From Deltaproteobacteria bacterium (GTDB taxonomy: Bacteria > Myxococcota > Kuafuiibacteriia > Kuafuiibacteriales > Kuafuiibacteriaceae): 12,440 nucleotides of DNA. Made by a program: the position numbers and the translations under genes. The stretch covers positions 1 through 12,440 of the forward strand of contig JAVJQW010000013.1 of assembly GCA_040218735.1 (NCBI GenBank). Reading direction: 5' to 3'. The notes under the pieces were generated by a model, which had not been told where the DNA came from, did no database searches, and saw nothing but the letters and a program-made list of their open reading frames with translations. Positions 27 to 12,440 of the stretch are shown piece by piece; position 1 is the first letter of the stretch; each line of letters starts with the position of its first letter.

Positions 27-2792
27 TCACTGCTGCAGCACGTAGCGCTGCATCGCCGCGCAGCTGTCGTCTCGACGCAGCGGCACGGCCAAGAACGACC
101 ACCCCAGCGCCGGCGTCACATCGACGCCGACCGGAGGGCCGTAGATTTCGATTTCGCTGACGGAGGCGCGCGTCTCGAACGGACGCTCGCGATAGCGCGC
201 GCTCACGCCGGTCCCACGAGACGCGTACGCAAGCTCACGGCCGACGTGGTGCTCAGGCCCGGGCCAGCGGTAGCGACCTTCCGTCGACACGGAAGCAACC
301 CAGCCCGCCGGCGCCGGCGGATAGGTGGTGCGCCAGTCGTACACCGCGCCGCCGATCGACAGGCGCGGCGCATCAAGCCGCGCGATCAACGTCGCCGCTT
401 CGTCTCCGACGAGGCGCTCGTCGCGCGCGGCCACGGACCGCACGCCGGTGTTGCGCTGCACTTCGAGGACCGACGGATGCAGGCTCGGGTCGCTGAGCGG
501 CCCGCGAACGTCGGCGCTCCAGAAGACGCGCTCGTTCGGAAAGACGAGGCCGGGGCCGATCGCACAGACTGGTGCCAGCGGCGTGACCCACGCTTCGGCG
601 ACTTCGTAGCCGCGGTTGTTCAGGACGTCGATTCCGCAGGGCATGGACCAGATCGCCGTCGTCTGCGGGGCCGACCAAGGCCCCACGAACGTCTGCTCGC
701 TCAACGCCGTGACACGACTTCCCAACGTCGGCGCCGTGAGGCGCGCGATCACCGAAGGCGTGCTCGCTACGTCGAGCGCTGTGTCCGAAGGCAGCTCGAG
801 GTGATAGGCGAGCTGACCTTCGAAGGCTGATGCCGTGGAGTTCTCGGTGAAGAGCTCACCGAGATTCGCCCAGCCGATGCGCCCGGACGGATTGCAGTCC
901 GTGTACCAAACCGGCGGCGATCGAATGTCGACCTCGAAGGTGAACGTCCGCGTGCGTGTGACACCTGCGGCGTCACGCGCGTGCACCTCGACGGCGTGAA
1001 GCGCCCCCGGTCGTGCGATCAGCTCGGGCCCAAGCGTCGCGTAGGCGACGGGGATGGCGGCGCGCCCGTCAGCCTCGATTTCGATTGCGCGGGGCGCCCC
1101 GCGCTCCAGTCCATTGACGACGTAGCGGTAGGTCGCGCCGACCACGTCCGCCGAGAAGGCGAGCTCGAAGACCGGGAGGTTGTCGCTCGCGAGGTCGAGG
1201 CGGTTCAGGAACTTTTCGAACCGGAACGGTTGCGGCGCCGTCTCGTCGATCACGAGCTCGCGACCCCCGCCGGCCGGCGCCGTGTACTTCAGGGCACCGC
1301 TCGGCTCGAGGTCCACCGCCCAGTCGCCCTCCTGGACGAAGCGCGTGGCCTGCAACGTGATCTGCGGTCCCGTCGCCGTGCACAGCACGTTGTGCTCCGA
1401 GGCCTCGGACCGGTTTCCGGCCGCGTCCTCCGCCCATACAAAGAGAGACGCCACGCGGCCGCACGGCAGCGGCGCGATCGCCTCGAACGTCGCGCCCGCG
1501 TCCTGCAGCTGCGCAGCCGGCGCACCGTCGACATGGATCACGACGTCGACCCGGCGGGCGTCCTCGACCTCGCCGAGGATCGCGACCGTCGCCGTAGGCA
1601 CCGAGTTCGGCACCGCGGCGCTCAGGCGCGGCGCGGTGTTGTCGACCACGAAGTCGAAGGTCCGCGCCGTCCTTCGGCCCGCGCGATCCACAGCGGTGAT
1701 CACGACCCGCCGCGCGCCGTCCTGCAGCGTCCCCGTGTCGACCTCGAAGCGTCCGGTGCCTCCGGGCGTCCGTTGGCGGCCCGCGCCCGCCTCGACGAGA
1801 ACCTCGACGACGTCGCCGACGTCGTCCGCCGCCTCGACCTGCAGCTCGAGCACGCCGGCGACGTCGGTGCCCGCGACGACGAGGCGCCCGCGGCGATCGC
1901 GCAGCTCCGCCCGCACGAAGCGCGGGGGCTCAGCGTCGACCGGCATCGCGGTGCCCGCTGGGAACAAGGGTCCATCGTTGGTCCTGATGGCTTGGGCGAG
2001 CGCACCGACCTCGGCGCCGCGCACGCCGCTGAGGTTGTTGGGGCCTTCGGCGAAACGGATCAGCGCCGCCGCGAGGCCGGCGCGAAGCGTTTGATCGTCG
2101 AGCGCGATCCCCGCGAAGCGGACCTGCACACCGCTCGCGTCGAGGCCATCGAACAGGCCGTCGCTCAGATCGATCGACAGCTGCCGAAGGAGCGCGCCGC
2201 TCGACACCTCGGGACCGAGGTCGAGTCCCGCCTGTTGGCGCAGGCCTTCGCCGAGCTCGACGAGCGCGGCAGCGACGAGGCCGGCGATCACGCCGTCCGA
2301 GGCGGGGACGCCTGCGACAGCGCGCACGTCGATCGGTGCGACCCGATCGTGCGCTACGCCGCCAAGCCAGTCGTGGACGGCCGCTCGCGCCGCCTGCAGC
2401 GCTTCGGCAGGATCGTCGCCCTGCCCTACCCGTGTACCCGCATAGATCCTCGCCAGGTGCGTCGCCGCGGTGACGCGGACCTGCGAGCGCGGCGCGCCCA
2501 ACCTGACGTCGTCGACGATCGCGCTCAGCGCGCCGGCCTCGACGAGGAGGGTCCCGTTCGCGATCTCGGCATCGAGCACGAACGCGCCGTCGTCATCGGT
2601 GAAGCCGGAGGCGAGGCGCGCGCCCCGCACGCCTTCCGCGAAGTCGTACAGCGCGATCGCTTCACCGACGGCCGCGCCGTCGAAGAACACCGACCCGATG
2701 ATCGGCGTCGTCACCCTGCCCTCGGGCGCGGACGACGGCTCGGCGCACGCCAAGGCGAGGACGCCCCATACCATCCATGTACGCCGGCTCAT
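27..2792 (-). CDS. Large lipoprotein (~921 aa) with bacterial Ig-like repeats; putative surface/adhesin-type protein
   Basis: The start was reassigned from 2858 to ATG 2792 because a strong SD (GGGAGAGG) lies just upstream and the N-terminus MSRRTWMVWGVLALA-C is a type II signal peptide with a lipobox. Repeated Ig-like boundary motifs: VDAEPP, VDNTAP, AVDRAGRR, AEDAAGNRS, ARDAAGV. There is an acidic DLSDGLFDG loop and a Cys/Trp-rich C-terminal region. Confidence 0.8.
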   Translation of the reverse strand: MSRRTWMVWGVLALACAEPSSAPEGRVTTPIIGSVFFDGAAVGEAIALYDFAEGVRGARLASGFTDDDGAFVLDAEIANGTLLVEAGALSAIVDDVRLGAPRSQVRVTAATHLARIYAGTRVGQGDDPAEALQAARAAVHDWLGGVAHDRVAPIDVRAVAGVPASDGVIAGLVAAALVELGEGLRQQAGLDLGPEVSSGALLRQLSIDLSDGLFDGLDASGVQVRFAGIALDDQTLRAGLAAALIRFAEGPNNLSGVRGAEVGALAQAIRTNDGPLFPAGTAMPVDAEPPRFVRAELRDRRGRLVVAGTDVAGVLELQVEAADDVGDVVEVLVEAGAGRQRTPGGTGRFEVDTGTLQDGARRVVITAVDRAGRRTARTFDFVVDNTAPRLSAAVPNSVPTATVAILGEVEDARRVDVVIHVDGAPAAQLQDAGATFEAIAPLPCGRVASLFVWAEDAAGNRSEASEHNVLCTATGPQITLQATRFVQEGDWAVDLEPSGALKYTAPAGGGRELVIDETAPQPFRFEKFLNRLDLASDNLPVFELAFSADVVGATYRYVVNGLERGAPRAIEIEADGRAAIPVAYATLGPELIARPGALHAVEVHARDAAGVTRTRTFTFEVDIRSPPVWYTDCNPSGRIGWANLGELFTENSTASAFEGQLAYHLELPSDTALDVASTPSVIARLTAPTLGSRVTALSEQTFVGPWSAPQTTAIWSMPCGIDVLNNRGYEVAEAWVTPLAPVCAIGPGLVFPNERVFWSADVRGPLSDPSLHPSVLEVQRNTGVRSVAARDERLVGDEAATLIARLDAPRLSIGGAVYDWRTTYPPAPAGWVASVSTEGRYRWPGPEHHVGRELAYASRGTGVSARYRERPFETRASVSEIEIYGPPVGVDVTPALGWSFLAVPLRRDDSCAAMQRYVLQQ

Positions 2793-2938: not shown

Positions 2939-3997
2939 TCACCAACGCACCGTCGGCCCTCCGCCGAACGTGAAGATCGTGAGCCCTTCTGCGAGCGCGC
3001 CACGCCCCAGCGTGGTGCGCGCCTGCAATGTGGCTGCGAGGCCGACCTGCTCGCCGAGGCGGCCCTCGAACACCCAGACATCGACCCCGACCGCTCCGAT
3101 GACCGTCGGAATGGAGGTGCTGTCCGCGGATCGATCCGTCCGCAGCGGGACACCTTCGCCCTGCCCGCCCGCGATCAACAGCCCCAGCCCCGCTTCGCCC
3201 CTGAGTTCGATGCGAGGCGACTCCGAGCCGCTCTCCTCGTAGTAGGCCCATGAGCGCTCCCACAGCGCGTAGCGAAGCGCCGCGCGCGCCGACAGCTCGA
3301 CGAGGAGGATCGTGCCGTTCGCCTCGTGCTCGTAGGCAACCGGCAGCACCTCGAGCCCCGCGGTGGGACCGACGCGAAGCGCGCCGTCGCCGAAGCGGTA
3401 ACCCACCGCGGCTCGGAAGCTACTCTGCAACCCCGACACATCACCGTTTCGAATCGCGGCGCCAGCGGCTTCGACCCGGGCTCGCCACCGATACCTCTGC
3501 ACTTCGAACGGCGGCTCGGTGATCAAGGCATCGGCCGGTGGATCCACGCGCGCCTCGCCGGGTGCGGCCCCGTCGCGCTTGGGATCCACGCCCGGCCCCC
3601 GCGGGGGGCCGTCGGGCTCCGGCTCGATCCCGCGCGGGGGCGCCGCCGCGGTCGCGCGCTGCGCGGCGCAGGTCTCTTTGGACTTGGCGATGAGCGTCGG
3701 CGTCCGCGAGTCCATGCGGCAGTCGCCGGTGCAGGCGGCGCGGTAGCGCTCGTAGAACTCGACCGCCTGATCGCAGCGATCACTCTTGCGGTAGGCCTGC
3801 GCGATCCCGAACAGCAGCGCGGGATCACCGTTCTTGCGGTACGCCTTCGACAACAGATCCACGGCCTCGTCGTAGGCTTCGAGCGTGAAGGCACGGCGGC
3901 CGCGGCGCGCGAGCTCCTCGGCGGACGCATCCGGGTCCGTCGACGGCGCGGCTTGCGCGGTGAGCAGCGCGACCAGGGTGAGGTTCATCCAAGACAT
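2939..3997 (-). CDS. Secreted TPR-domain protein with Pro-rich linker and C-terminal outer-membrane beta-barrel (~352 aa)
   Basis: The start was reassigned to ATG 3997 (GAGGAG SD at 4012..4007). Signal peptide MSWMNLTLVALLTAQA-. TPR helices AEELARRGRRAFTLEAYDEAVDLLSKAY...PALLFGIAQAYRKSDRCDQAVEFYERY. A Pro-rich linker follows, then amphipathic beta-strands (FRAAVGYRF, LSARAALRYAL, GAVGVDVWVF), ending in the aromatic residue of GGGPTVRW. Confidence 0.8.
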   Translation of the reverse strand: MSWMNLTLVALLTAQAAPSTDPDASAEELARRGRRAFTLEAYDEAVDLLSKAYRKNGDPALLFGIAQAYRKSDRCDQAVEFYERYRAACTGDCRMDSRTPTLIAKSKETCAAQRATAAAPPRGIEPEPDGPPRGPGVDPKRDGAAPGEARVDPPADALITEPPFEVQRYRWRARVEAAGAAIRNGDVSGLQSSFRAAVGYRFGDGALRVGPTAGLEVLPVAYEHEANGTILLVELSARAALRYALWERSWAYYEESGSESPRIELRGEAGLGLLIAGGQGEGVPLRTDRSADSTSIPTVIGAVGVDVWVFEGRLGEQVGLAATLQARTTLGRGALAEGLTIFTFGGGPTVRW

Positions 3998-4016: not shown

Positions 4017-5519
4017 TCAACGACCGGGGTCGTAGCCCTCCGGGAACAGGGCGTCTGGATCCAACGCAGGGCGCTCGCCGGCGTCCGGCTTGGGCGGCAG
4101 CTCGTAACCTTCGGGGAACAGGCGATCGAGCGGCGTCGCTCCGCCATCGCGTGGCGGCGCCGTCGCAGGTGACTTCTTCGTCGTGGGACGCGCCGGCGCA
4201 GCGCGGACCGGGCGAGCGTTCACGCGGCGCACGACCTGGCCGCCGTCCCGAGACGGCCGCGGCGCCGACACTACGGCCGCGCCCTCGTCGCCGGCGTCGC
4301 GGAGCGATGCGGCGACCGACTTCGCAGGCCCCGCGTGATGCATTGCGCCTCCGTCCCGCGCCATCGCCGCGCTGGGCAACGTCCCGCCCGCCTCTGATGC
4401 CTCGCCCTGCCCCATGCGCCGCGCCACGAGCATGCCCGTCAGCACGACCACCACCACCGCGAGGGCGTACGTCGCCCACTTCAACAGGTGCGGCTCGCTC
4501 GCTTCCCCGCTCGCCCACCCGAACGACTGGGTCGTCGAGCGCATCGCCGCGGCGCCGCGGTCGTCGCGGGTCGGTGTGTCCGCAAACTCGATGCGCCGGG
4601 TCGCGTCCTGCGTGCGCAGCCAGACCTTGAGGCGCTCATCGTCCACACCATCCAAGAGCCGGCTCGCCTGCAGCGCGCGGACCGCGTCCACGGCCGTCGG
4701 CCGTCGGGCGACGTCGCGCTCGAGCATCCGCAGGCACGCCGTCGCCAGCGCGGCCGGGATGCCTTCGCGGAGCTCGCGCGGGTCGCGGACCTCGCCGTCC
4801 AAGATCTGCCGCCCAATGCGCCGATCGCTCAGGCGCTGGCCGTCTTCGTCGTACCCGAAAAGGGCCCGGCCCGTGAGCATCTCGTGCAGCACCACGCCCA
4901 CGCCGAAGACGTCCGAGCGTCCGTCGACGGGCTGAAACTGCAGCCGCTCCGGGCTCGCGTACGTAAGCTTGCCGACGAAGACGTTGCTCCGCGTCGTATC
5001 GAGGCGCTCGTAGACACGCGCGACGCCGAAGTCCGCGATGCGCACGGCACCTTCGCTGTCGACGAGGATGTTGTCGGGCGAGATGTCGCGATGGACGACC
5101 GGCGTGGGCTCGCCCGCTTCGTTCGTCCAGGCGTGCGCGTACGCGAGGCCCCGGAGCACCTCCGCCGCGATGTAGCCGGCGAGCTCGGGCGGAAGCGCCC
5201 CGCGCTTCTTCAAGACGGCTTTCACGTCGGGCCCGCCCTCGAACGCGCCGCGCACCAGCTCGAAGACCAGGAAGCGCCCCCCCTCGCTCTCGCCGGAGTC
5301 GAGCAGGCGCACGATGTTCTTGTGGGCCAACTGCGCGCACAGGCGCGCCTCGTTCACGAACGCCAGCGCGTACGCTTCGCGGAGGTCCTCACGCGGCGGC
5401 GCCTTCATGAACTTGAGCGCGACTTCCCGGTCCCAGATGTCCTTGATCTGACGCGCGCGGTAGACGACGCCCATGCCGCCGCCGCCGAGGCGATCGAGCT
5501 TTTCGTAGCGCGCATTCAT
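4017..5519 (-). CDS. Hanks-type membrane Ser/Thr protein kinase (500 aa)
   Basis: The catalytic motifs are intact: LGGGGMGVVY, VALK, alphaC Glu (FVNEARL), HRDISPDNIL, DFG, GKLTYASPE, DGRSDVFGVG. One TM helix (WATYALAVVVVVLTGMLVA) is followed by an Ala/Pro/Arg-rich tail. SD GAGGG at 5531..5527. Confidence 0.95.
   Translation of the reverse strand: MNARYEKLDRLGGGGMGVVYRARQIKDIWDREVALKFMKAPPREDLREAYALAFVNEARLCAQLAHKNIVRLLDSGESEGGRFLVFELVRGAFEGGPDVKAVLKKRGALPPELAGYIAAEVLRGLAYAHAWTNEAGEPTPVVHRDISPDNILVDSEGAVRIADFGVARVYERLDTTRSNVFVGKLTYASPERLQFQPVDGRSDVFGVGVVLHEMLTGRALFGYDEDGQRLSDRRIGRQILDGEVRDPRELREGIPAALATACLRMLERDVARRPTAVDAVRALQASRLLDGVDDERLKVWLRTQDATRRIEFADTPTRDDRGAAAMRSTTQSFGWASGEASEPHLLKWATYALAVVVVVLTGMLVARRMGQGEASEAGGTLPSAAMARDGGAMHHAGPAKSVAASLRDAGDEGAAVVSAPRPSRDGGQVVRRVNARPVRAAPARPTTKKSPATAPPRDGGATPLDRLFPEGYELPPKPDAGERPALDPDALFPEGYDPGR
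4029..4121 (-). repeat. Two-copy peptide repeat LFPEGY[E/D] at the kinase C-terminus
   Basis: 4121..4101 reads CTG TTC CCC GAA GGT TAC GAG and 4049..4029 reads CTG TTC CCG GAG GGC TAC GAC. The period is 72 nt. Confidence 0.85.
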
Positions 5520-5541
5520 CGCACGTCCCTCGATCCGAACC

Positions 5542-5550
5542 TGCTATCGT
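5542..5550 (+). promoter_or_regulatory. Putative extended -10 element (TG-n-TATCGT) for a leaderless activator transcript
   Basis: TGCTATCGT matches TGnTAnnnT and ends 7 nt before ATG 5558. No SD precedes this ATG. Confidence 0.5.
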
Positions 5551-5557
5551 TTCGCGC

Positions 5558-7180
5558 ATGAGGGTGCGCGTCACGATCGACGGTCGCGACTACGACGAAG
5601 CGATCTTGCCCCGCCATCGCGGCGTTCGCTGCGGCTCGACGACCCACGCCGACGTGCGTGTGCCTCATCCCGACGGCCAAGCGCAAACCGTCTTCCTGCT
5701 CCACCCCGCGACGTCCACGGCCTTCACGCTGGAGCCGCTGGTTCCGCTGCTCCTCAACGGCGAGGCGCCGACCGAGCCGGCGTTCGTCGAGGCGAACGAC
5801 GAGATCATGGTCGGTGGCGCGCGCGTGCGCTTTTCGGATTCGTCGGAGCGCGGCGCGACGATGACCGAACTCGATGCGCCGCCGGCGGCGCGCGCGCTCG
5901 AGCTGTCGTTGCCCGACGGGCGCACCGTTCGCCTCGAACCCGAGCAGCACACCAAGGCCACGCCGTTGGTCATCGGCCGTCGCCCCGCGGCGAGCCACGA
6001 CCACGTCTGCGTGCTTCGCAACGATCCTGTCGTGTCGCGCGAGCACTGCCACGTCTTCGCCGACGGCCCCTACTGGGTCGTCGCTTCGTTCGCGAAGCAC
6101 GGCACCATCGCGCACGACCTGCTCATCCCGCACGGGCAGCACCTCGCGCTCACGCGCACGAGCCTTCGCCGACCCGTGATCCTTCACTGCGGTAAGACGC
6201 CGCTGCAGCTGCGCCTCGTGCCCGACCCTTGGGAGTTCATGCCGGCAAGCGCCGCGATGAAGGCGATCTACGACCGCATCGACACGGAGCTCGCGTACCA
6301 CAAGGACACCGTCCTCATCCTCGGCGAGACGGGCGTCGGCAAGACCATCCTCGCGCGACGGATCCACGATCATTCCGTGGGTCGCGACACGGCGGCGGAC
6401 AAGTTCGTGAAGTCCGAGCATTCCGAGGTCGGCGTCGAGGCGGACCTCGTCGGCGTCAAGAAGGGCGGCTACACCGGCGCGGACGGCGATCGCGACGGCG
6501 TGTTCGTGCGCGCCGATGGCGGCACAGCGTTCCTCGACGAGATCGGCGACTACAACAAGACCGCGCAACTTCGCTTGCTCCGCGCCTGCGACGAGGGCGT
6601 AGTCACGCCGATCGGCGCGACCCAAGACGTCGCGTTCGACGCGCGCATCGTCGCGGCGACTTGGCGCGACCTCAAACAAGAGGTCGCCGAGGGGCGCTTT
6701 CGTACCGACTTGTTGGCGCGCCTGCTCCAGGTCCCGCCGATTCGCATCCCCGCTCTTCGCGACCGACCCGAAGACATCGCGCCCTACGCGAAGAGCTTCC
6801 TTTCGAAGCACGACCCTGACCTCGCGCTGACGTCGGACGCACTGTCGGTGCTTCACACGCACCCTTGGCGCACCAACCTGCGCGAGCTCAACGCCGTCTT
6901 GAAGGCGAGCACCCGCCGCGCCCTCGCCCGCGGCGCACGCGACATCGACGTGGGCGACGTGCAGGCTGCATTGCATCAGCTCGGCGACGTCGAGGCGGCG
7001 CCCCCGGCACCCGCTACGCGCCATCATCGGCGCGTGCCCCGGGCGCAGATCGAAGCCGCGCTCCGCAGCACCGGCGGCAACGTCCGGCGCGCCGCGATGG
7101 AGGTCCTCGCCGTGCCCGACACCACGCTGCGACGCTGGCTGCACAAGCTCGAGATCGATCCCGCGCGCTTTGTCGACTGA
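5558..7180 (+). CDS. FHA-domain sigma54-dependent-type transcriptional activator (FHA-like + FHA + AAA+ + Fis HTH; 540 aa)
   Basis: FHA core LVIGRR...VSREHC. Walker A GETGVGKT (6323-6346). GAFTGA-like GGYTGA (6464-6481). Walker B AFLDEIGD, then QLRLLR, RIVAAT, GRFRTDLLARL, IPALRDRPEDI, WRTNLREL. C-terminal Fis-type HTH IEAALRSTGGNVRRAAMEVLAVPDTTLRRWL. Confidence 0.92.
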   Translation: MRVRVTIDGRDYDEAILPRHRGVRCGSTTHADVRVPHPDGQAQTVFLLHPATSTAFTLEPLVPLLLNGEAPTEPAFVEANDEIMVGGARVRFSDSSERGATMTELDAPPAARALELSLPDGRTVRLEPEQHTKATPLVIGRRPAASHDHVCVLRNDPVVSREHCHVFADGPYWVVASFAKHGTIAHDLLIPHGQHLALTRTSLRRPVILHCGKTPLQLRLVPDPWEFMPASAAMKAIYDRIDTELAYHKDTVLILGETGVGKTILARRIHDHSVGRDTAADKFVKSEHSEVGVEADLVGVKKGGYTGADGDRDGVFVRADGGTAFLDEIGDYNKTAQLRLLRACDEGVVTPIGATQDVAFDARIVAATWRDLKQEVAEGRFRTDLLARLLQVPPIRIPALRDRPEDIAPYAKSFLSKHDPDLALTSDALSVLHTHPWRTNLRELNAVLKASTRRALARGARDIDVGDVQAALHQLGDVEAAPPAPATRHHRRVPRAQIEAALRSTGGNVRRAAMEVLAVPDTTLRRWLHKLEIDPARFVD

Positions 7181-7185
7181 CACCC

Positions 7186-7836
7186 TCACCAGTACACGCT
7201 CAATTCCAAGGGGACCGTCACGAACCGCGCGTAGCGCTCCGCCCCGAACACCTCGGTCACGCGCAGCGCGGCACCCACGAACACGAGGTTGAAGATCCGC
7301 CAGTCGACCGCGACTCCGAGCATCACCGTCGCCCCGCCCTGCCCTTCGTCCGAAAGCTCCACACCGAAGCTGCGACCCGTCTGCACCTCGCGAAGGTCCT
7401 GCGCCGAGTAGATCGTCCACTGGTAGCCGAGCGCCCCTTCGACGTACGGCGCGACATCGTAGCCGCTCAGCACCTTGTAGCGCGCGCCAGCGTGCACGCC
7501 GATCTGTTGCGCCGAAAAGACGCGCACCGCGTCGACGGGCGTCCCGAGCATGACCGCTTCGTTCATGGAGCCCGCGAACTGGGCCCAGTCTGCCCCCAAG
7601 GTCAGGTCGAGATCGTCGAGGAGGCCGTAGCGCCCCTGGACACCGACCATCCAGGTGGTGAGCCGAAACGCGGTCGCGTCCTGCGCGCTGAACGCCGGGA
7701 ACAGCGCGCCGGAGGCGACCCCGGCGACCCACTCCCCGCGCTCCGCGCGCGCCGACGAGGCGCTCGTTAGCAACGCTCCCATACATAGTAAGGCGAGGGC
7801 GCCGGCCGCGAGCCTGTGGAGGGCGCTGCGGATCAC
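7186..7836 (-). CDS. Small outer-membrane beta-barrel protein (216 aa), last gene of the T4SS-like operon
   Basis: Signal peptide ending ...SASSARA-. About 8 amphipathic strands (WMVGVQGRYGL, IGVHAGARYKV, PYVEGALGYQW, MLGVAVDWRI, FVGAALRVTE) and an aromatic C-terminus (LELSVYW). The GTG start overlaps the upstream TGA (GTGA 7836..7833). Confidence 0.8.
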   Translation of the reverse strand: MIRSALHRLAAGALALLCMGALLTSASSARAERGEWVAGVASGALFPAFSAQDATAFRLTTWMVGVQGRYGLLDDLDLTLGADWAQFAGSMNEAVMLGTPVDAVRVFSAQQIGVHAGARYKVLSGYDVAPYVEGALGYQWTIYSAQDLREVQTGRSFGVELSDEGQGGATVMLGVAVDWRIFNLVFVGAALRVTEVFGAERYARFVTVPLELSVYW

Positions 7837-9149
7837 CGCTCGTCCCCCACCACGAGCACCTCGAAGGCGGTCCCCGCCGCGACCTCGTAGGTCACGCCCC
7901 GTCGGTCCGCTTCGAGCTCGCGCTGCGCCTCGGGCACCGTGCCTTGCGCCACGCGGCGGACGACTTTGCCGACCACACCGGATCCCGCGACCTCGCTCGC
8001 GATCTCACCGCCGGCCCCCACGGCGCCGCCGAGGCCGCCGGCGCCCACGCGATCTTCGAGCGACGCTTCGCGACGTCGGGCCACGAGGCCCGGCATGTCG
8101 CCGTGACTGATCGCGTAGCCCTGCAGCGCGTAGCGCTCTTGGTTCGTCCGCACCTCTTCGAAGTCGATGTACAGGCGCCCGGTCGAAGCGTCGGCGTTCG
8201 CGCGGCCCCGAAGGATCGCGCCGGCCTTTACCTTCACGGCCCCGCCGACGCGCACCGGCTCGGTGACCTTCGCGAGCACCGGGCTTCGGTTCGCGCTCGA
8301 TGCGCCGACGAGGAGCTTCGCCTTCAGACGCGTCCCCACCGGCAAGCCGAGCCCGCGTTCCTTCGCCTCGACGCCGTAGCCTTCGGGCAGCTCGAGCACC
8401 CCGCCCGGCGCAAAGAAGATGCTCTGATCCACCGGCGCACGCTCCGCGCCGGGAAGCGGCCGCGGCGCCAGTGCGCGCGGCACGTCGATCGTCGCGTCCG
8501 CCATCGGGTCGTAGAGCTCGCCCGGCTGCAGTACCCGCCGCGCTGGGACGTCGTCCTCGACGAGCGCTTCGTCGAGCGCCCGTTGTTCGGCTTCGCGTCG
8601 CGCTTCCTTCGCCGCGGCCTGACGGAGGAGCTCGCCGATGTCCTGCTCGGCCACGCCGTCCTCGGCCTCGCTCTTGAAGACCGGGAAGCCCGTGGCCTTC
8701 TTCTTCGTCGCCGGCTTCGCCTCGGGCGCGGGTGCCTCGACGGGCGCGCCGAACACCCACCAGCCGAAGAGCCCCGTGGCCACGAGTAACCCAAACTGAA
8801 GCCCGCGCCGTTGCTCGAGTCCCTCGACGAGCGCGCGCCAGCCCGTCACGCGCGGCGCGATCGTTCGGTGGTCTGGCGCCGTCGAGGCCTCCGGGTGCTC
8901 GAAGCCCACGACCTGCGCGCCCTCGTCCTCGGGCGCAACGATCCGCTGCGCCGCCTCCTCCAGTGTCAGGTCGCTGTCGTCGTGACTCAGCTCGACCGCC
9001 TCGAAGGTGCGCGGCGCATCCAGAGGCTCGGCGGCCTCGACGACGGTCGTCGCCCTCGACATCGCGACAACGGCCACCGCGGCTTCGTCCGGCGTGGCTT
9101 CGTCGCCTCGCGCCCGCGGCAAACCCCGCTTCTTGTCGTCGGTCTTCAA
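7833..9149 (-). CDS. VirB10/TrbI/TraM-like T4SS core scaffold protein (~438 aa)
   Basis: The architecture is an acidic N-tail, one TM (GLQFGLLVATGLFGWWVFGA), a Pro/charged linker and a C-terminal domain. That domain reads LPVGTRLKAKLLVGASSANRSPVLAKVTEPVRVGGAVKVKAGAILRG...RLYIDF...GYAISHGDMPGL, then a Gly-rich helical hairpin, then YEVAAGTAFEVLV. The likely start is TTG 9149, overlapping the upstream TGA (TTGA). An in-frame ATG at 9062 is an alternative. Confidence 0.78.
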   Translation of the reverse strand: MKTDDKKRGLPRARGDEATPDEAAVAVVAMSRATTVVEAAEPLDAPRTFEAVELSHDDSDLTLEEAAQRIVAPEDEGAQVVGFEHPEASTAPDHRTIAPRVTGWRALVEGLEQRRGLQFGLLVATGLFGWWVFGAPVEAPAPEAKPATKKKATGFPVFKSEAEDGVAEQDIGELLRQAAAKEARREAEQRALDEALVEDDVPARRVLQPGELYDPMADATIDVPRALAPRPLPGAERAPVDQSIFFAPGGVLELPEGYGVEAKERGLGLPVGTRLKAKLLVGASSANRSPVLAKVTEPVRVGGAVKVKAGAILRGRANADASTGRLYIDFEEVRTNQERYALQGYAISHGDMPGLVARRREASLEDRVGAGGLGGAVGAGGEIASEVAGSGVVGKVVRRVAQGTVPEAQRELEADRRGVTYEVAAGTAFEVLVVGDER

Positions 9150-10057
9150 AACGCGATCCCGTCCACGACCACTTCGCGCTTCGCGCCACCGTCTTCGATC
9201 ACTGTGAGGGCGTAGGCGCGCGCGGCGTCGCCCTCGATCCCAAAAATCGCCATCCCGAAAACACGCTCGTCGAACGCGAGCGTCGGATCGCCTCGCCACT
9301 CGACGAGCGCCTCGACGTTGCCCTCGTCGTCCGAAGCTTCGCGCAGCACTACGTCCTTCAGGTGAAACAGATCGCGGCGCCGGTTGTGCACCTCGAACGC
9401 CACGAACGTCTCCGCGCCGATGCGGCAGATGCGATGCACGCGCACGACAAGGAGGTCGTGCATCGCGCGCTCGCGGAGCGACTCACAGTGCATCCGATCG
9501 AGCATCGCCCGCGCCATGCGGCGCCGGCTCTGTTCGACGACGGTGTTCGACAGGGCGGCCTTCTCTTCTTCGAAGGCCGCCGTCAGTCGCCGCGCCTGCT
9601 CCGCGAGCTGCTCCTTCACGAACTCCCGCTCGCGCACGCGCTCGGGGAACGCGAGCACGACCCGCTGTACGGACTCGCGACTTCGCGCGACCCGAAGATC
9701 CACGAGGAGCGTTGCGCCGCTATCCATGAAGATCTGCAGGTTGCCGCGCTGGCCGAGCAGATCCTCGGTCGTGAGGTTTCCGCCCCGAGGCATTCGCGGC
9801 CAGACCAGGACACGCAGCGGCTCGGTCTCCTGCGCCTGGTACTTGAAGATCGCCGCGTTCCCGAGCGCCGGTGCGCCCTTCATGCGCACGCCCTCCGGGA
9901 ACTCGATCGACACCACGTCGCCGAGCGCCGTGTTGATCTTCAGGCGCGTCGCCTCGCCGTAGGCGATGTCGTGCGTCAGCGCCTTGCCGGTGCAGTAGCC
10001 CTGGCGGTCCGCGCCGCATCCGGCGGCGGCGACGAGAAGCGCAACGAGCGCGATCAT
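9146..10057 (-). CDS. VirB9/TraN-like (DUF2381-like) exported core-complex protein (~303 aa), possible lipoprotein
   Basis: The start was reassigned to ATG 10057 (ATGA overlap). Hydrophobic leader MIALVALLVAAAG-C. N-domain RLKINTALGDVVSIEFPEGVRM...ALGN...VLVWP...NLQIFMDSG...LVDL resembles the VirB9/TrbG N-domain. A central coiled coil is followed by a C-terminal beta-sandwich (VAFEVHNRRRDLFHL). It lies between the VirB8-like and VirB10-like genes. Confidence 0.65.
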   Translation of the reverse strand: MIALVALLVAAAGCGADRQGYCTGKALTHDIAYGEATRLKINTALGDVVSIEFPEGVRMKGAPALGNAAIFKYQAQETEPLRVLVWPRMPRGGNLTTEDLLGQRGNLQIFMDSGATLLVDLRVARSRESVQRVVLAFPERVREREFVKEQLAEQARRLTAAFEEEKAALSNTVVEQSRRRMARAMLDRMHCESLRERAMHDLLVVRVHRICRIGAETFVAFEVHNRRRDLFHLKDVVLREASDDEGNVEALVEWRGDPTLAFDERVFGMAIFGIEGDAARAYALTVIEDGGAKREVVVDGIAF

Positions 10058-10758
10058 CCCTCGGACTCCTGCAGACGATGGACCTCGAGGTCCTCGGCCG
10101 AGTCGAACCACCACGTCTTCACGTGGTGCACCTGCAGCCCGTGAATCGATGCGCGCGAGACGGGCACGCGCTGCAAGACGATCTGCGCGTAGTAGTACTG
10201 GCGGTGCTCGGGCGCCTCGCCCTCGGCCCAGCTGTTGTGGATCTTCGGCGTCACCACGACCGCGCCCCACGCCACGGCATAGATACGTGCGTCCACGTCG
10301 CCGGGGTCGAAGTCGCCGAGACGGATCTGCAGACCTTCGAAGCGACCCTTGAGGTTGAGGTCCTCGGTCTTCCTGCGCCGCGCGATCTCTTCTTCGTCGG
10401 CGAGGAAGATCTTCCGGAGGCGCGGCGTCATCATCGCCGTCGCCTCGGAGAGGTCCTCCTCGACGTCCATCGAGTCGACGAGGCTGAACTTTTCGAGGAA
10501 GTGCCGCGTGAACGTGTCGACACGTTCGTTCGCCATCTCCACGCGCGGCCGCACCGTGTCCTCGAAGAGCACCGGCTGCCAGTTCGCGTCGAAGACGACG
10601 ACGGGGATGGGGCGCGCCAACGCAACAACCGCGACGCCGAGCGCGGCGAGCGCCACGAAGACGAGCCCGCCCACCGCGAACCAGATCTTTCGGTTCACGC
10701 TCCGTCGGAAGTCTTCGAGCTCCACGAACTCCGGACGCAGCGACACGGGCGGACTCAC
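10054..10758 (-). CDS. VirB8/TrbF/TraK-like bitopic inner-membrane T4SS protein (~234 aa)
   Basis: The start was reassigned to GTG 10758 (GTGA overlap). A short cytoplasmic N-terminus precedes one TM (IWFAVGGLVFVALAALGVAVVAL), then RPIPVVVFDANWQP, helices VDTFTRHFLEKF...DLSEATAMMTPRL, and terminal strands ending in a motif of the VirB8 NPxGL type (SIHGLQVHHV). This fits an NTF2-like VirB8 fold. Confidence 0.72.
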   Translation of the reverse strand: MSPPVSLRPEFVELEDFRRSVNRKIWFAVGGLVFVALAALGVAVVALARPIPVVVFDANWQPVLFEDTVRPRVEMANERVDTFTRHFLEKFSLVDSMDVEEDLSEATAMMTPRLRKIFLADEEEIARRRKTEDLNLKGRFEGLQIRLGDFDPGDVDARIYAVAWGAVVVTPKIHNSWAEGEAPEHRQYYYAQIVLQRVPVSRASIHGLQVHHVKTWWFDSAEDLEVHRLQESEG

Positions 10759-11915
10759 GACAGCACCTCGATCAGCAGCCAAACCGCGAGCACGCCGAGC
10801 CCCACGAACGTCAGCCACAACGTCCGCCGGGACGAGGTCGGATTCACAGCTGGGAGCATCGACACCGGACGAACCTCGGGCCTTGGCGGCGCCTCCGCCG
10901 GATACAGGCGATCGTCGGGCGCGATCGAACGCTCGGCCAGTGTCGGCCTCGGCGGCGTCGAGGGTCGCTCGGGATCCACGATGCTGATCGGCTGCGCGCC
11001 CTCCTCGGCGGGCAGAATGATCGACCCGGTGAACAAGACGCTCGCCGACGGTCGTCGTTGCGGCGGCTTCTTCCACGACGGGTGCCCAGCGCCTGCGTCA
11101 GCAACGACGCCCGATCCCGAGGGCCTCCGCTCCGATCCCGAAGAGGCGCGCCGCGGCGCCGCGACGGACGGCCTCGGCCCCGGCTTCGCGCGCAACGTCT
11201 CCGCCGAAGCATCGAGGCCGTCCCCCTCGGCCGCGACGGCCGCGAGCATGTCGCTCGACGGCGCAAATGGTCTGGTCGCCGACTCGAAGAGGACGGGCGT
11301 CTTGTCGTCGTCGTCGAAGCCGGTCACGTCGACTGCGGCGAGAACCGCCTCGGAGAGGACCTCGCGCGTCGTCTCCTCCGTCGGCACTTCGTCGAGCGGT
11401 GGCGGCTTGCGAGCGCTCGGTCGACGCACCGGCCGAACCCGCTCCGTCGGTACCGGTTCCGTCGGCGCAGAGGCGGTCGGCACGGACGCGGTCGACGCGG
11501 AGGCTTCCGGCGAAGCCCAGCGTTGCGACAGGTTGGCGAGCGCCCACGTTGTCTGCGCCGCCACGCTCACCGTGTCGTCGAGCTTCGCCGCTTCGAGCTC
11601 GTCACCGAGGATGAGGCCGAGCTGCTCCTCGAGGATCTGCGCTCGCGCCTCACGCACGACGAGGACCGTGCCGACGAAATTCTTGCGGATCCGCTTCGCG
11701 ACATCGGCCGCGTCCAGACCAATGCGGTCGCCGTCGATCACGATGACCGCGTCCACCGTCGCGGGCGCGAGGTTATGGATGCCGGCGGCGACCCCGTCGT
11801 AGATTTCGACCTCGCCGCTCAGTCGCTCCGCGAGCCACTTGCGCTCCCGGTCGGGCCCGACCAGCGCAACCCGCAGCTTCCTTCCGATGTTTCTCCAGCC
11901 CGTCATGTCTTCCAT
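10755..11915 (-). CDS. Hypothetical tail-anchored protein: degenerate receiver (REC)-like domain + long Pro/acidic disordered linker + C-terminal TM (386 aa)
   Basis: The N-terminus LRVALVGPD...EVEIYDGVAAGI...VDAVIVID...GLDAADVAKRIRK...TVLVV parallels the CheY-like pattern. The C-terminal hydrophobic helix is TLWLTFVGLGVLAVWLLIEVLS. AGGGAG lies upstream; ATG 11906 is an alternative start. Confidence 0.7.
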   Translation of the reverse strand: MEDMTGWRNIGRKLRVALVGPDRERKWLAERLSGEVEIYDGVAAGIHNLAPATVDAVIVIDGDRIGLDAADVAKRIRKNFVGTVLVVREARAQILEEQLGLILGDELEAAKLDDTVSVAAQTTWALANLSQRWASPEASASTASVPTASAPTEPVPTERVRPVRRPSARKPPPLDEVPTEETTREVLSEAVLAAVDVTGFDDDDKTPVLFESATRPFAPSSDMLAAVAAEGDGLDASAETLRAKPGPRPSVAAPRRASSGSERRPSGSGVVADAGAGHPSWKKPPQRRPSASVLFTGSIILPAEEGAQPISIVDPERPSTPPRPTLAERSIAPDDRLYPAEAPPRPEVRPVSMLPAVNPTSSRRTLWLTFVGLGVLAVWLLIEVLS

Positions 11916-11924
11916 GGCTCCCTG

Positions 11925-12440
11925 CTACTTCCCGCCGCCGCGATGCTCGCGACGGTCCAGTCCACTCGCTTCGTTGTCGTTCGTGATGCGGAAGACCGGA
12001 CTCGGCGACGTCGTCGCCCCGCTCCCGCTATGTCCGCCGCTCCCGCCCATCGCGCCGGAGGCCACCCCGGCCCCCGCCGCTCCTGCGAACCGTCCGAGCC
12101 CCGCGCTCGCGGCGCCGGTGGCGACCATCGAGCCGAGGCGGATCATCTGCGCGGCGATCAGGCCGCCGAGGACGGCGACCGGGGCGCTGCGCACGAGGAG
12201 CGCGGACACCACCGGCGTGAACCAGACCAGCAGGCAGTACGCGATGCAGACCGCCCACCACCGGGTCGCGATCAAGACGGCCTGACTCCCCTCGACCGGA
12301 TCGAAGAGGGTCGCAAAGTCGATCGTCTGCACCTGCCGCAGGAGCCCCGCGAGCGAGGCGACCATCAGCGACAAGATCACGTTGAAGACGAGCGGCCACA
12401 GCGACACCTCGACGAGGTTCTTGATCCACCCCTCGATGCC
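11925..12440 (-). CDS. VirB6/TrbL/TraJ-like polytopic inner-membrane conjugation protein, C-terminal part (5' truncated by the window)
   Basis: The frame is open to the window edge: GIEGWIKNLVEVSLWPLVFNVILSLMV.... The W...LWP TM signature, further TMs (WWAVCIAYCLLVWFTPVVSALLV) and a Gly/Ala/Ser-rich tail are typical of the VirB6/TrbL class. It lies upstream of the VirB8/9/10-like genes. Confidence 0.68.
   Translation of the reverse strand, partial: GIEGWIKNLVEVSLWPLVFNVILSLMVASLAGLLRQVQTIDFATLFDPVEGSQAVLIATRWWAVCIAYCLLVWFTPVVSALLVRSAPVAVLGGLIAAQMIRLGSMVATGAASAGLGRFAGAAGAGVASGAMGGSGGHSGSGATTSPSPVFRITNDNEASGLDRREHRGGGK

Follow-up and report, generated by a model that had tools for sequence, protein, structure and literature searches.

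Distal half of a putative conjugation operon from a divergent, apparently undescribed myxobacterial type IV secretion system

What kind of machine is encoded by a row of virB-like genes that standard models hardly recognise and that ends in an outer-membrane β-barrel? The question is raised by contig JAVJQW010000013.1 from a member of the Myxococcota, of which a stretch of 12,440 nt (the window) was analysed. Between the window edge and position 7186, the open reading frame (ORF) calls on the minus strand give, in this sequence, a VirB6-like gene, a gene that we call X, VirB8-like, VirB9-like and VirB10-like genes and the barrel gene, the order that an earlier note on this DNA had described. 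The upstream limit of the analysed DNA is position 12440, where the VirB6-like gene is cut at its 5′ end. X and virB8, virB8 and virB9, and virB10 and the barrel gene each overlap by 4 nt, and the TTG start of virB10 at 9149 overlaps the virB9 stop codon likewise. Because these overlaps chain five of the ORFs together, and the G+C content at third codon positions (GC3) is 0.85–0.92 in all six, the set is an intact, coupled operon, the 5′ part of its first gene lying beyond the window. We suggest that it is probably the distal half of the mating-pair-formation (MPF) operon of a conjugative plasmid or integrative and conjugative element, and that it encodes a myxobacterial-type type IV secretion system (T4SS) that does not fall clearly into any of the eight described classes. 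On sequence grounds, this would be a divergent, apparently undescribed conjugation-type system and not a hybrid with TraO of the Bacteroidetes.

None of the six operon proteins reaches a curated Pfam or NCBIfam cut-off, which bears out the earlier view that this is a virB-ordered T4SS core largely missed by standard models. Below the cut-offs, Pfam matches VirB8 (E 0.03), TrbI (E 5.7e-7) and OMP_b-brl (E 2e-4), and it returns no match for the VirB9-like or the VirB6-like gene. The claim that a small virB7 and a virB11 after virB10 are missing agrees with regular-expression scans: no small lipobox ORF was found on the minus strand between 7000 and 12440 (a VirB7 being difficult to recognise), nor did an expression that also overlooked one VirB4 find a VirB11-like P-loop ORF in the window. 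We reject these absences as a sign of novelty, since, according to PMC4027160, systems outside MPF-T normally lack VirB11.

The VirB9-like core-complex subunit (9146..10057, minus strand) consists of a beta domain, a long helix and an Ig (immunoglobulin)-like domain. Its AlphaFold2 (AF2) model (pLDDT 84.7, pTM 0.49) has two beta domains bridged by a long helix, and its first seven Foldseek matches (best E 3.9e-8) are without exception T4SS core complexes, those of R388, X. citri, F-type plasmids and Dot/Icm; a CagX/CagY entry follows at rank 11. The whole-chain TM is just about 0.26; the best single-domain match has a TMt of 0.71 and an rmsd of 3.3. VIA-align also puts X. citri VirB9 at the top (Z 12.1), but generic Ig folds score practically as high (Z 11.8), so that this adds little. 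The predicted fold thus supports the VirB9 identity.

The same protein leads to DUF2381/TIGR02268, an M. xanthus paralogue family of unknown function. A homologue search returned 15 proteins including the query, two of them with precomputed DUF2381 annotation, and a profile search returned 293 proteins at E≤0.001. Pfam was run on 106 of 150 relatives among the matches listed, near full length; DUF2381 was found in 30 (13 over the cut-off), CagX in six and DUF4138, the Bacteroidetes TraN family, in two. The window protein itself is unmatched by the DUF2381 model (PF09544), whereas the proteins at the VirB9 position of plasmid pMxC21 and of locus L006 (L-numbers denote relative loci) pass its curated cut-off, the former as a full member (135.7 bits; cut-off 29.2). 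The closest plasmid protein, from pYRE, is 30% identical (E 1e-19) and is the sole plasmid match among 72,556 records. In the VirB9 tree the window clade, whose members here are all metagenomic proteins, lies with the neighbouring but distinct pYRE clade inside a 48-row group (SH-aLRT 90), and other VirB4-linked members fall just outside. From these sequence relationships we place the VirB9 of the window as a distant relative of the DUF2381 group.

The VirB10-like protein (7833..9149, minus strand; about 438 amino acids) has an acidic cytoplasmic tail, one transmembrane (TM) segment, a Pro-rich linker and a TrbI domain with a Gly-rich helical hairpin. It most likely starts at TTG 9149, which forms the overlap with the virB9 stop; the alternative start, GTG 9299, was rejected because GC3 is 0.46 in the extra stretch 9299–9150 compared with 0.83–0.88 below it. 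The match to Pfam TrbI (E 4.5e-7 to 5.7e-7) stays under the curated cut-off. A family hidden Markov model (HMM) built without the window matches the protein at E 2e-13 (among 5539 ORFs), and a 13-row profile of the domain finds four PDB sequences, all VirB10, DotG or ComB10; as a single query, the domain finds nothing in the plasmids and nothing relevant among PDB sequences. The profiles thus support the VirB10 identity. Complex prediction for the C-terminal domains of VirB9 and VirB10 scored 0.00, gave no answer and was used neither way.

For VirB8 and VirB6, the support comes from family profiles. The VirB8/TraE-like bitopic subunit (10054..10758, minus strand) has one TM segment and is matched at E 9e-9 by a 57-member family HMM built without the window; at E≤0.1, Pfam finds VirB8 in six and TraE in seven of 14 aligned relatives. 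VirB8 is the least directly tested of the core parts. The VirB6/TrbL-like polytopic inner-membrane subunit (11925..12440, minus strand) is represented by its C-terminal 171 amino acids, with three hydrophobic segments and an NCBIfam TrbL match at E 0.34, and a 25-member family HMM, again without the window, matches the fragment at E 6e-8 (both HMMs among 5539 ORFs).

The assignment to conjugation draws on the relatives of these genes. Two are complete Myxococcus plasmids: pYRE of M. stipitatus (NZ_CP102771.1; L001), found through the VirB9-like protein of the window, and pMxC21 (NZ_CP123279.1; L002 and L068), found by searching with the VirB4 of pYRE. Both carry homologues of the VirB6, VirB8, VirB9, VirB10, barrel and Big proteins of the window, with VirB9 of DUF2381 type and the order B6-B8-B9-B10, and in neither was a VirB11 found by annotation and an imperfect P-loop expression. 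They differ in having an N-terminal Ser/Thr kinase on VirB10, in lacking X, in placing the barrel after the Big gene and a conserved 124-amino-acid ORF, and in being only about 25–30% identical to the window. The tra region of pYRE begins with a coupling protein, a gene for a protein of unknown type, a relaxase-like gene, a pilin, a gene at the VirB3 position, VirB4 and a gene at the VirB5 position, and continues with VirB6, VirB8, VirB9, a kinase–VirB10 fusion, topA, a small gene, Big, a small ORF and the barrel. On pMxC21, the DUF2381-type VirB9 is followed by a kinase–VirB10 fusion, Big, a small ORF, the barrel and SLT, and the Replic_Relax and coupling genes lie elsewhere. The relaxase calls depend on similarity to Replic_Relax (E 3e-9 for pMxC21, E 1e-4 for L006) and, for pYRE, on its own HMM. 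The pYRE relaxase-like ORF (L001:27073-28050, minus strand; own HMM E 2e-45) is replaced in the PLSDB gene table by a short ORF on the opposite strand.

The large Ig-domain (Big) lipoprotein of the window (27..2792, minus strand; lipobox-like LALAC, Pfam Big_13) is homologous to the Big protein of pYRE (28% identity over 370 amino acids, E 5e-21), so the system reaches beyond the genes to which the earlier note had confined it. Big homologues follow virB10 in five of the six myxobacterial loci, and we regard the lipoprotein as a probable adhesin of the same system. A barrel HMM with two seeds, pYRE and pMxC21, matches the window barrel at E 3e-12, whereas the lowest E value among 500 shuffles is 1.5; by this measure the barrel belongs to the same family as those of both plasmids. 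The earlier note had overlooked this lipoprotein, the link to DUF2381 and the kinase–VirB10 fusions of the relatives.

These fusions (kinase, TM segment, linker and TrbI domain) occur in four of the six myxobacterial loci (L001:17861-20299, minus strand; L002:26150-28534; L006:16531-18972; L007:16231-18624), where they are annotated merely as 'protein kinase'. VirB10 is free of a kinase in L005, in L008 and in the window. No kinase–VirB10 fusion was found in the published literature within a search that most subscription journals lay outside.

Three further features of the plasmid-type loci are recorded here. An ORF of 124–125 amino acids just before the barrel (L001:9375-9746, minus strand; L068:3630-4004) is 34% identical between the plasmids, has no Pfam match and is absent from the window. 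A type I topoisomerase gene directly follows virB10 in pYRE-type loci (L001:15454-17682, L006:18972-21317, L007:18679-20892, L008 near 17651); it is annotated on pYRE and was recognised from sequence in the other three. Myxobacterial paralogue-family pairs on both plasmids (L001:36957-38402, L002:8222-9585), namely a TIGR02269 lipoprotein with a double-CXXCG protein and an AHH-domain protein with DUF1629, resemble toxin–immunity cargo.

Scanning GTDB with a VirB4 alignment of 39 rows yielded 63 loci: four from Myxococcota, 25 mostly from Bdellovibrionota and 34 in a second group. With the two plasmids, this makes six myxobacterial loci, of which pYRE was located through VirB9 and the other five via VirB4 or together with it. 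All six have the order B4-B6-B8-B9-B10 (L008 is frameshifted), and four, the plasmids and two of the GTDB loci, have a coupling protein and a relaxase-like gene within reach. Among the Bdellovibrionota-dominated loci, 13 of 25 show B4-B6-B8-B9-B10, coupling protein (T4CP) and relaxase, and no kinase, Big or barrel was detected in the 25 (the barrel HMM having two seeds only). This arrangement is compact in L009-L032 and L067, with a small lipoprotein between T4CP and relaxase, and several of the metagenome-assembled genomes hold multiple, partly interrupted copies. The second group (L033-L066, from Bdellovibrionota and Deltaproteobacteria) was set aside as another system, given its order of B8, B10 and then B4 and its separate VirB4 clade; L036, L056, L058, L060 and L062 carry tandem VirB8-like pairs. 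The best plasmid matches of the pYRE VirB4 are those of Thermus plasmids (L003:9546-14505), where the VirB10-like gene is divergent and lies upstream of the pilin.

Several observations weigh against this assignment. Since the window contains no VirB4, coupling protein or relaxase, its part in conjugation is inferred from relatives, and all gene context comes from relatives that are about 25–30% identical to it. A GTDB scan with the closest VirB9 relatives confirmed none of 51 pattern matches, the pattern scan being insensitive. X, the N-terminal part of an FHA-domain activator and a TPR gene, all discussed below, have no homologue in the relative loci. Of the folds expected by the earlier note, the VirB9 fold was matched and VirB10 was reached by profile, while a 14-row VirB8 profile run against PDB sequences gave no VirB8 structure. 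In a VirB4 tree of 33 rows (LG+G4; 14 rows, mostly near-duplicates and the long-branch P0215, left out), pMxC21, the Bdellovibrionota group and Thermus branch separately from a polytomy, and a quick mixture tree of 45 rows joins Myxococcota, Bdellovibrionota and Thermus weakly (SH-aLRT 85). Finally, some relatives may not conjugate, because DUF2381 and kinase genes also form clusters on the M. xanthus chromosome, for which bioRxiv 10.64898/2026.08.28.747804 proposes a role in phase variation.

In the main rival explanation, the locus would be a domesticated chromosomal derivative that delivers proteins on contact, in predation or kin competition, under local kinase and FHA–sigma-54 control, and transfers no DNA. 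The distinctness of the window VirB9 clade from the plasmid clade fits this, as do the extra regulatory-looking genes that are not on the plasmids, the chromosomal DUF2381–kinase clusters of M. xanthus and the flat composition (66–75% G+C, 70% for the window as a whole); according to PMC4027160, unclassifiable loci are mostly (75%) free of a relaxase. Nevertheless, we consider domestication unlikely. A coupling protein and a relaxase-like gene are present in both complete relatives, which are plasmids, and in two of the four GTDB loci; the window retains the accessory barrel and Big genes of the plasmids; no candidate effector or immunity gene was noticed in it; and the lack of a close relative in GTDB, within the limits of the scan, fits a patchy mobile element.

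Could the system instead belong, as a divergent member, to one of the existing classes (by its VirB4 most plausibly MPF-F, by its other parts MPF-T or MPF-B) and look new only because the profiles were trained on other phyla? The class tests use the VirB4s of the relatives; the window holds none. For all 13 family VirB4s the best NCBIfam model is TraC-F-type, with 170–290 bits, far under its cut-off of 567. Scores with the other models are 102–206 for VirB4_CagE (cut-off 643), at most 99 for TraG (262), 37–74 for the G model (521) and 11–23 for TcpF (1100), so that no class cut-off is passed by any of the 13, while a Bacteroidetes TraG used as control scores 479 against its cut-off of 262. MOB-suite, for its part, assigns neither an MPF type nor a relaxase to pYRE or pMxC21 and types both as 'non-mobilizable', further evidence of the blindness of standard models that the earlier note had suspected. 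In the 33-row tree, the references for F (4–5 sequences), T (3), B, C and FATA each form a fully supported clade that excludes the family VirB4s (F 100/99, C 100/100), and the pYRE-type clade (98/98) lies outside all of them; classes G, I and FA are unsampled.

Individual components do resemble those of known classes. With MPF-T (VirB/D4, Trw, Trb) the system shares the order B6-B8-B9-B10, the VirB9 fold and the TrbI domain; however, MPF-T has virB7 and virB11, of which none were found here, it lacks the accessory barrel and Big protein, and the VirB4s of the relatives fall outside its clade. MPF-F (F, SXT/R391, IncH) offers the best VirB4 model, TraE matches among the VirB8 relatives and a similar lack of VirB11, yet virB4 precedes B6-B8-B9-B10 here, the VirB4s lie outside the F clade, and TraW, TraU, TraF, TraH, TraN and TrbC were not found on the two complete plasmids by annotation and by Pfam on the tra-region proteins, rather than on every ORF. 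MPF-B (CTnDOT-type, Bacteroidetes) likewise lacks VirB11 and has a barrel gene near the core, and the family HMMs weakly match TraK (2e-6), TraJ (1e-4), TraN (3e-3) and TraM (0.01) in a set without T or F controls; there, however, TraM (VirB10) precedes TraN (VirB9), in contrast to the order here, VirB4 stays under the TraG cut-off, the barrel is not TraO, and neither TraO nor TraQ was found on the two plasmids by annotation and Pfam. MPF-C has VirB10 before VirB9, its VirB4 clade is separate and its Nostoc components are unmatched by the family HMMs (E at least 6.7). MPF-FATA lacks the outer-membrane core, while VirB9 and VirB10 are present here, and its clade does not include the VirB4s of the relatives. 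The Bdellovibrionota relatives match the TraE (6e-5), VirB9 (4e-12) and VirB10 (4e-7) models, which speaks for an existing class. Membership in one is, taken together, improbable, though more likely than the TraO hybrid discussed below.

On the tree, sampled for T, F, B, C and FATA, and on the NCBIfam models, it is well supported that the system is unclassified; that it is one new class is plausible. PMC4027160 gives as the rule for a class at least three CONJScan class-specific profile matches near virB4. We put forward tentatively, as a possibility that we rate below even, that the system represents a ninth mating-pair class, with Myxococcota as its native group and perhaps Bdellovibrionota and Thermus as further holders, with a DUF2381 VirB9, with a VirB10 that is often an envelope-spanning, receptor-like Ser/Thr kinase and gates transfer by phosphorylation, and with mating contact through a dedicated barrel and Ig lipoprotein, and that the DUF2381–kinase clusters of M. 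xanthus are domesticated pieces of it.

The barrel (7186..7836, minus strand; 4-nt translational overlap with virB10) had been called a terminal TraO-like β-barrel. It is indeed predicted to be a barrel: the AF2 model has eight long strands, the Foldseek top matches are OmpA (best, E 7.7e-9), Ail and NspA, and the Atlas OMP_b-brl score is 0.98. The likeness to TraO did not hold. Pfam TraO finds five of five real TraOs at 53–189 bits and none of seven barrels of the window and plasmid family, hhalign gives probabilities of 0.3% and 2% between barrel and TraO with shallow profiles, and the plasmid-barrel HMM scores TraOs at E of at least 73; TraO as an identity for the barrel was therefore rejected at the sequence level. 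PMC4027160 treats TraO as TraI/pilin-like. Both complete plasmids have the barrel, and the flanks of the four GTDB loci reach no further than the Big gene. Because the plasmid barrels lie several genes downstream of virB10, the position directly after virB10 is a feature peculiar to the window locus. A chimera of a virB-order core with Bacteroidetes TraO as terminal component is very improbable and already largely refuted at this level, for although both barrels have about 190–215 amino acids and follow core genes, and the core proteins are weakly similar to MPF-B parts, the barrel is OmpA/Ail-like, the plasmid barrel is not adjacent to virB10 and the lack of VirB11 is normal outside MPF-T. 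What survives of the earlier picture is the gene order, the barrel and a virB-order T4SS missed by models; TraO and the hybrid do not. As a separate observation, the fifth Foldseek match is PDB 9nh2_A (E 6e-7), a porin of the Legionella Dot/Icm system observed in situ, possibly a precedent for small barrels on a T4SS or possibly a generic barrel similarity.

If the window does encode a conjugation-type T4SS, VirB6 and VirB8 would form an inner-membrane scaffold, and the DUF2381-related VirB9 together with VirB10 would form the envelope-spanning core, in which, by analogy with known VirB structures, the helical hairpin of VirB10 may line the outer-membrane pore. The upstream part of the operon, as in the relatives, would supply the pilin, VirB3, VirB4 and the gene at the VirB5 position. 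In the relatives, genes for a coupling protein and a Replic_Relax-type relaxase lie close by, which makes single-stranded DNA bound to a relaxase the likely substrate. VirB4 and the coupling ATPases would drive transfer, and VirB11 would not be used. We suggest that the barrel and the Ig lipoprotein are not channel components but accessories at the surface that most likely serve donor–recipient adhesion or entry exclusion. In most myxobacterial relatives VirB10 bears a kinase at its cytoplasmic end, suggesting that assembly or transfer could be controlled by phosphorylation.

Our literature search, which did not cover most subscription journals, found no published description of this system. 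Conjugation is unmentioned in the main texts of the pYRE and pMxC21 papers, as far as these were accessible (PMC11237760, PMC10544341), and conjugation terms are likewise missing from one supplement of PMC10544341. Few plasmids are known from myxobacteria, and relatives of the window machine sit unrecognised on two of them. If this is the transfer system native to the myxobacteria, it can be tested directly, because complete copies are already present in two cultured strains, and it could yield a self-transmissible vector for bacteria that are difficult to manipulate. A further consequence would be that these social bacteria have a conjugation system of their own, that the long-unexplained DUF2381 gains a structural role as VirB9, that a kinase–VirB10 fusion is added to what is known of such systems, and that mobility typing, as with the two plasmids, overlooks a whole group.

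The remaining genes of the window are less easily tied to the system. Those downstream of the operon, taken with the G+C content of 70%, suggest a myxobacterial host, in line with the relatives. X (386 amino acids; 10755..11915, minus strand) has a globular N-terminus of about 130 residues, a long Pro/Ser/acidic region and a C-terminal membrane anchor (TM segment near residue 366). It occupies the usual place of virB7, and in the intact myxobacterial loci virB6 directly abuts virB8; it has no meaningful match in Pfam, NCBIfam or the PDB. Its length, its C-terminal anchor and the lack of a lipobox led us to reject it as VirB7, and it looks like a lineage-specific insertion. By eye its N-terminus looks like a degenerate receiver domain, for which Pfam and PDB give no support. 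A TPR protein with a signal peptide, TPR matches and a beta-rich C-terminus (2939..3997, minus strand) is encoded between the kinase and the Big lipoprotein, and its membership in the system is uncertain.

The kinase is a membrane-anchored Ser/Thr kinase (4017..5519, minus strand) with a kinase domain (Pkinase E 2e-44, catalytic motifs present), a TM segment and a Pro-rich tail. That it is the split-off part of a kinase–VirB10 fusion is unsupported: it is 35–39% identical to three VirB10-fused kinases, which are 45–49% identical to each other, and VirB10 is kinase-free in L005 and L008 too. The FHA-domain sigma-54 activator (5558..7180, plus strand; Sigma54_activat E 8e-41, FHA E 0.0016, HTH_8) is transcribed towards the barrel gene and away from the kinase gene. 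A search for the sigma-54 promoter motif gave four matches compared with 8.5 expected, with no site above chance. Either protein could possibly regulate the T4SS; since the kinase is at most 39% identical to the fused ones and no sigma-54 site stands out, kinase/FHA control of the window system is speculation. The starts of the two divergent genes are just 38 bp apart (window 5519-5558).

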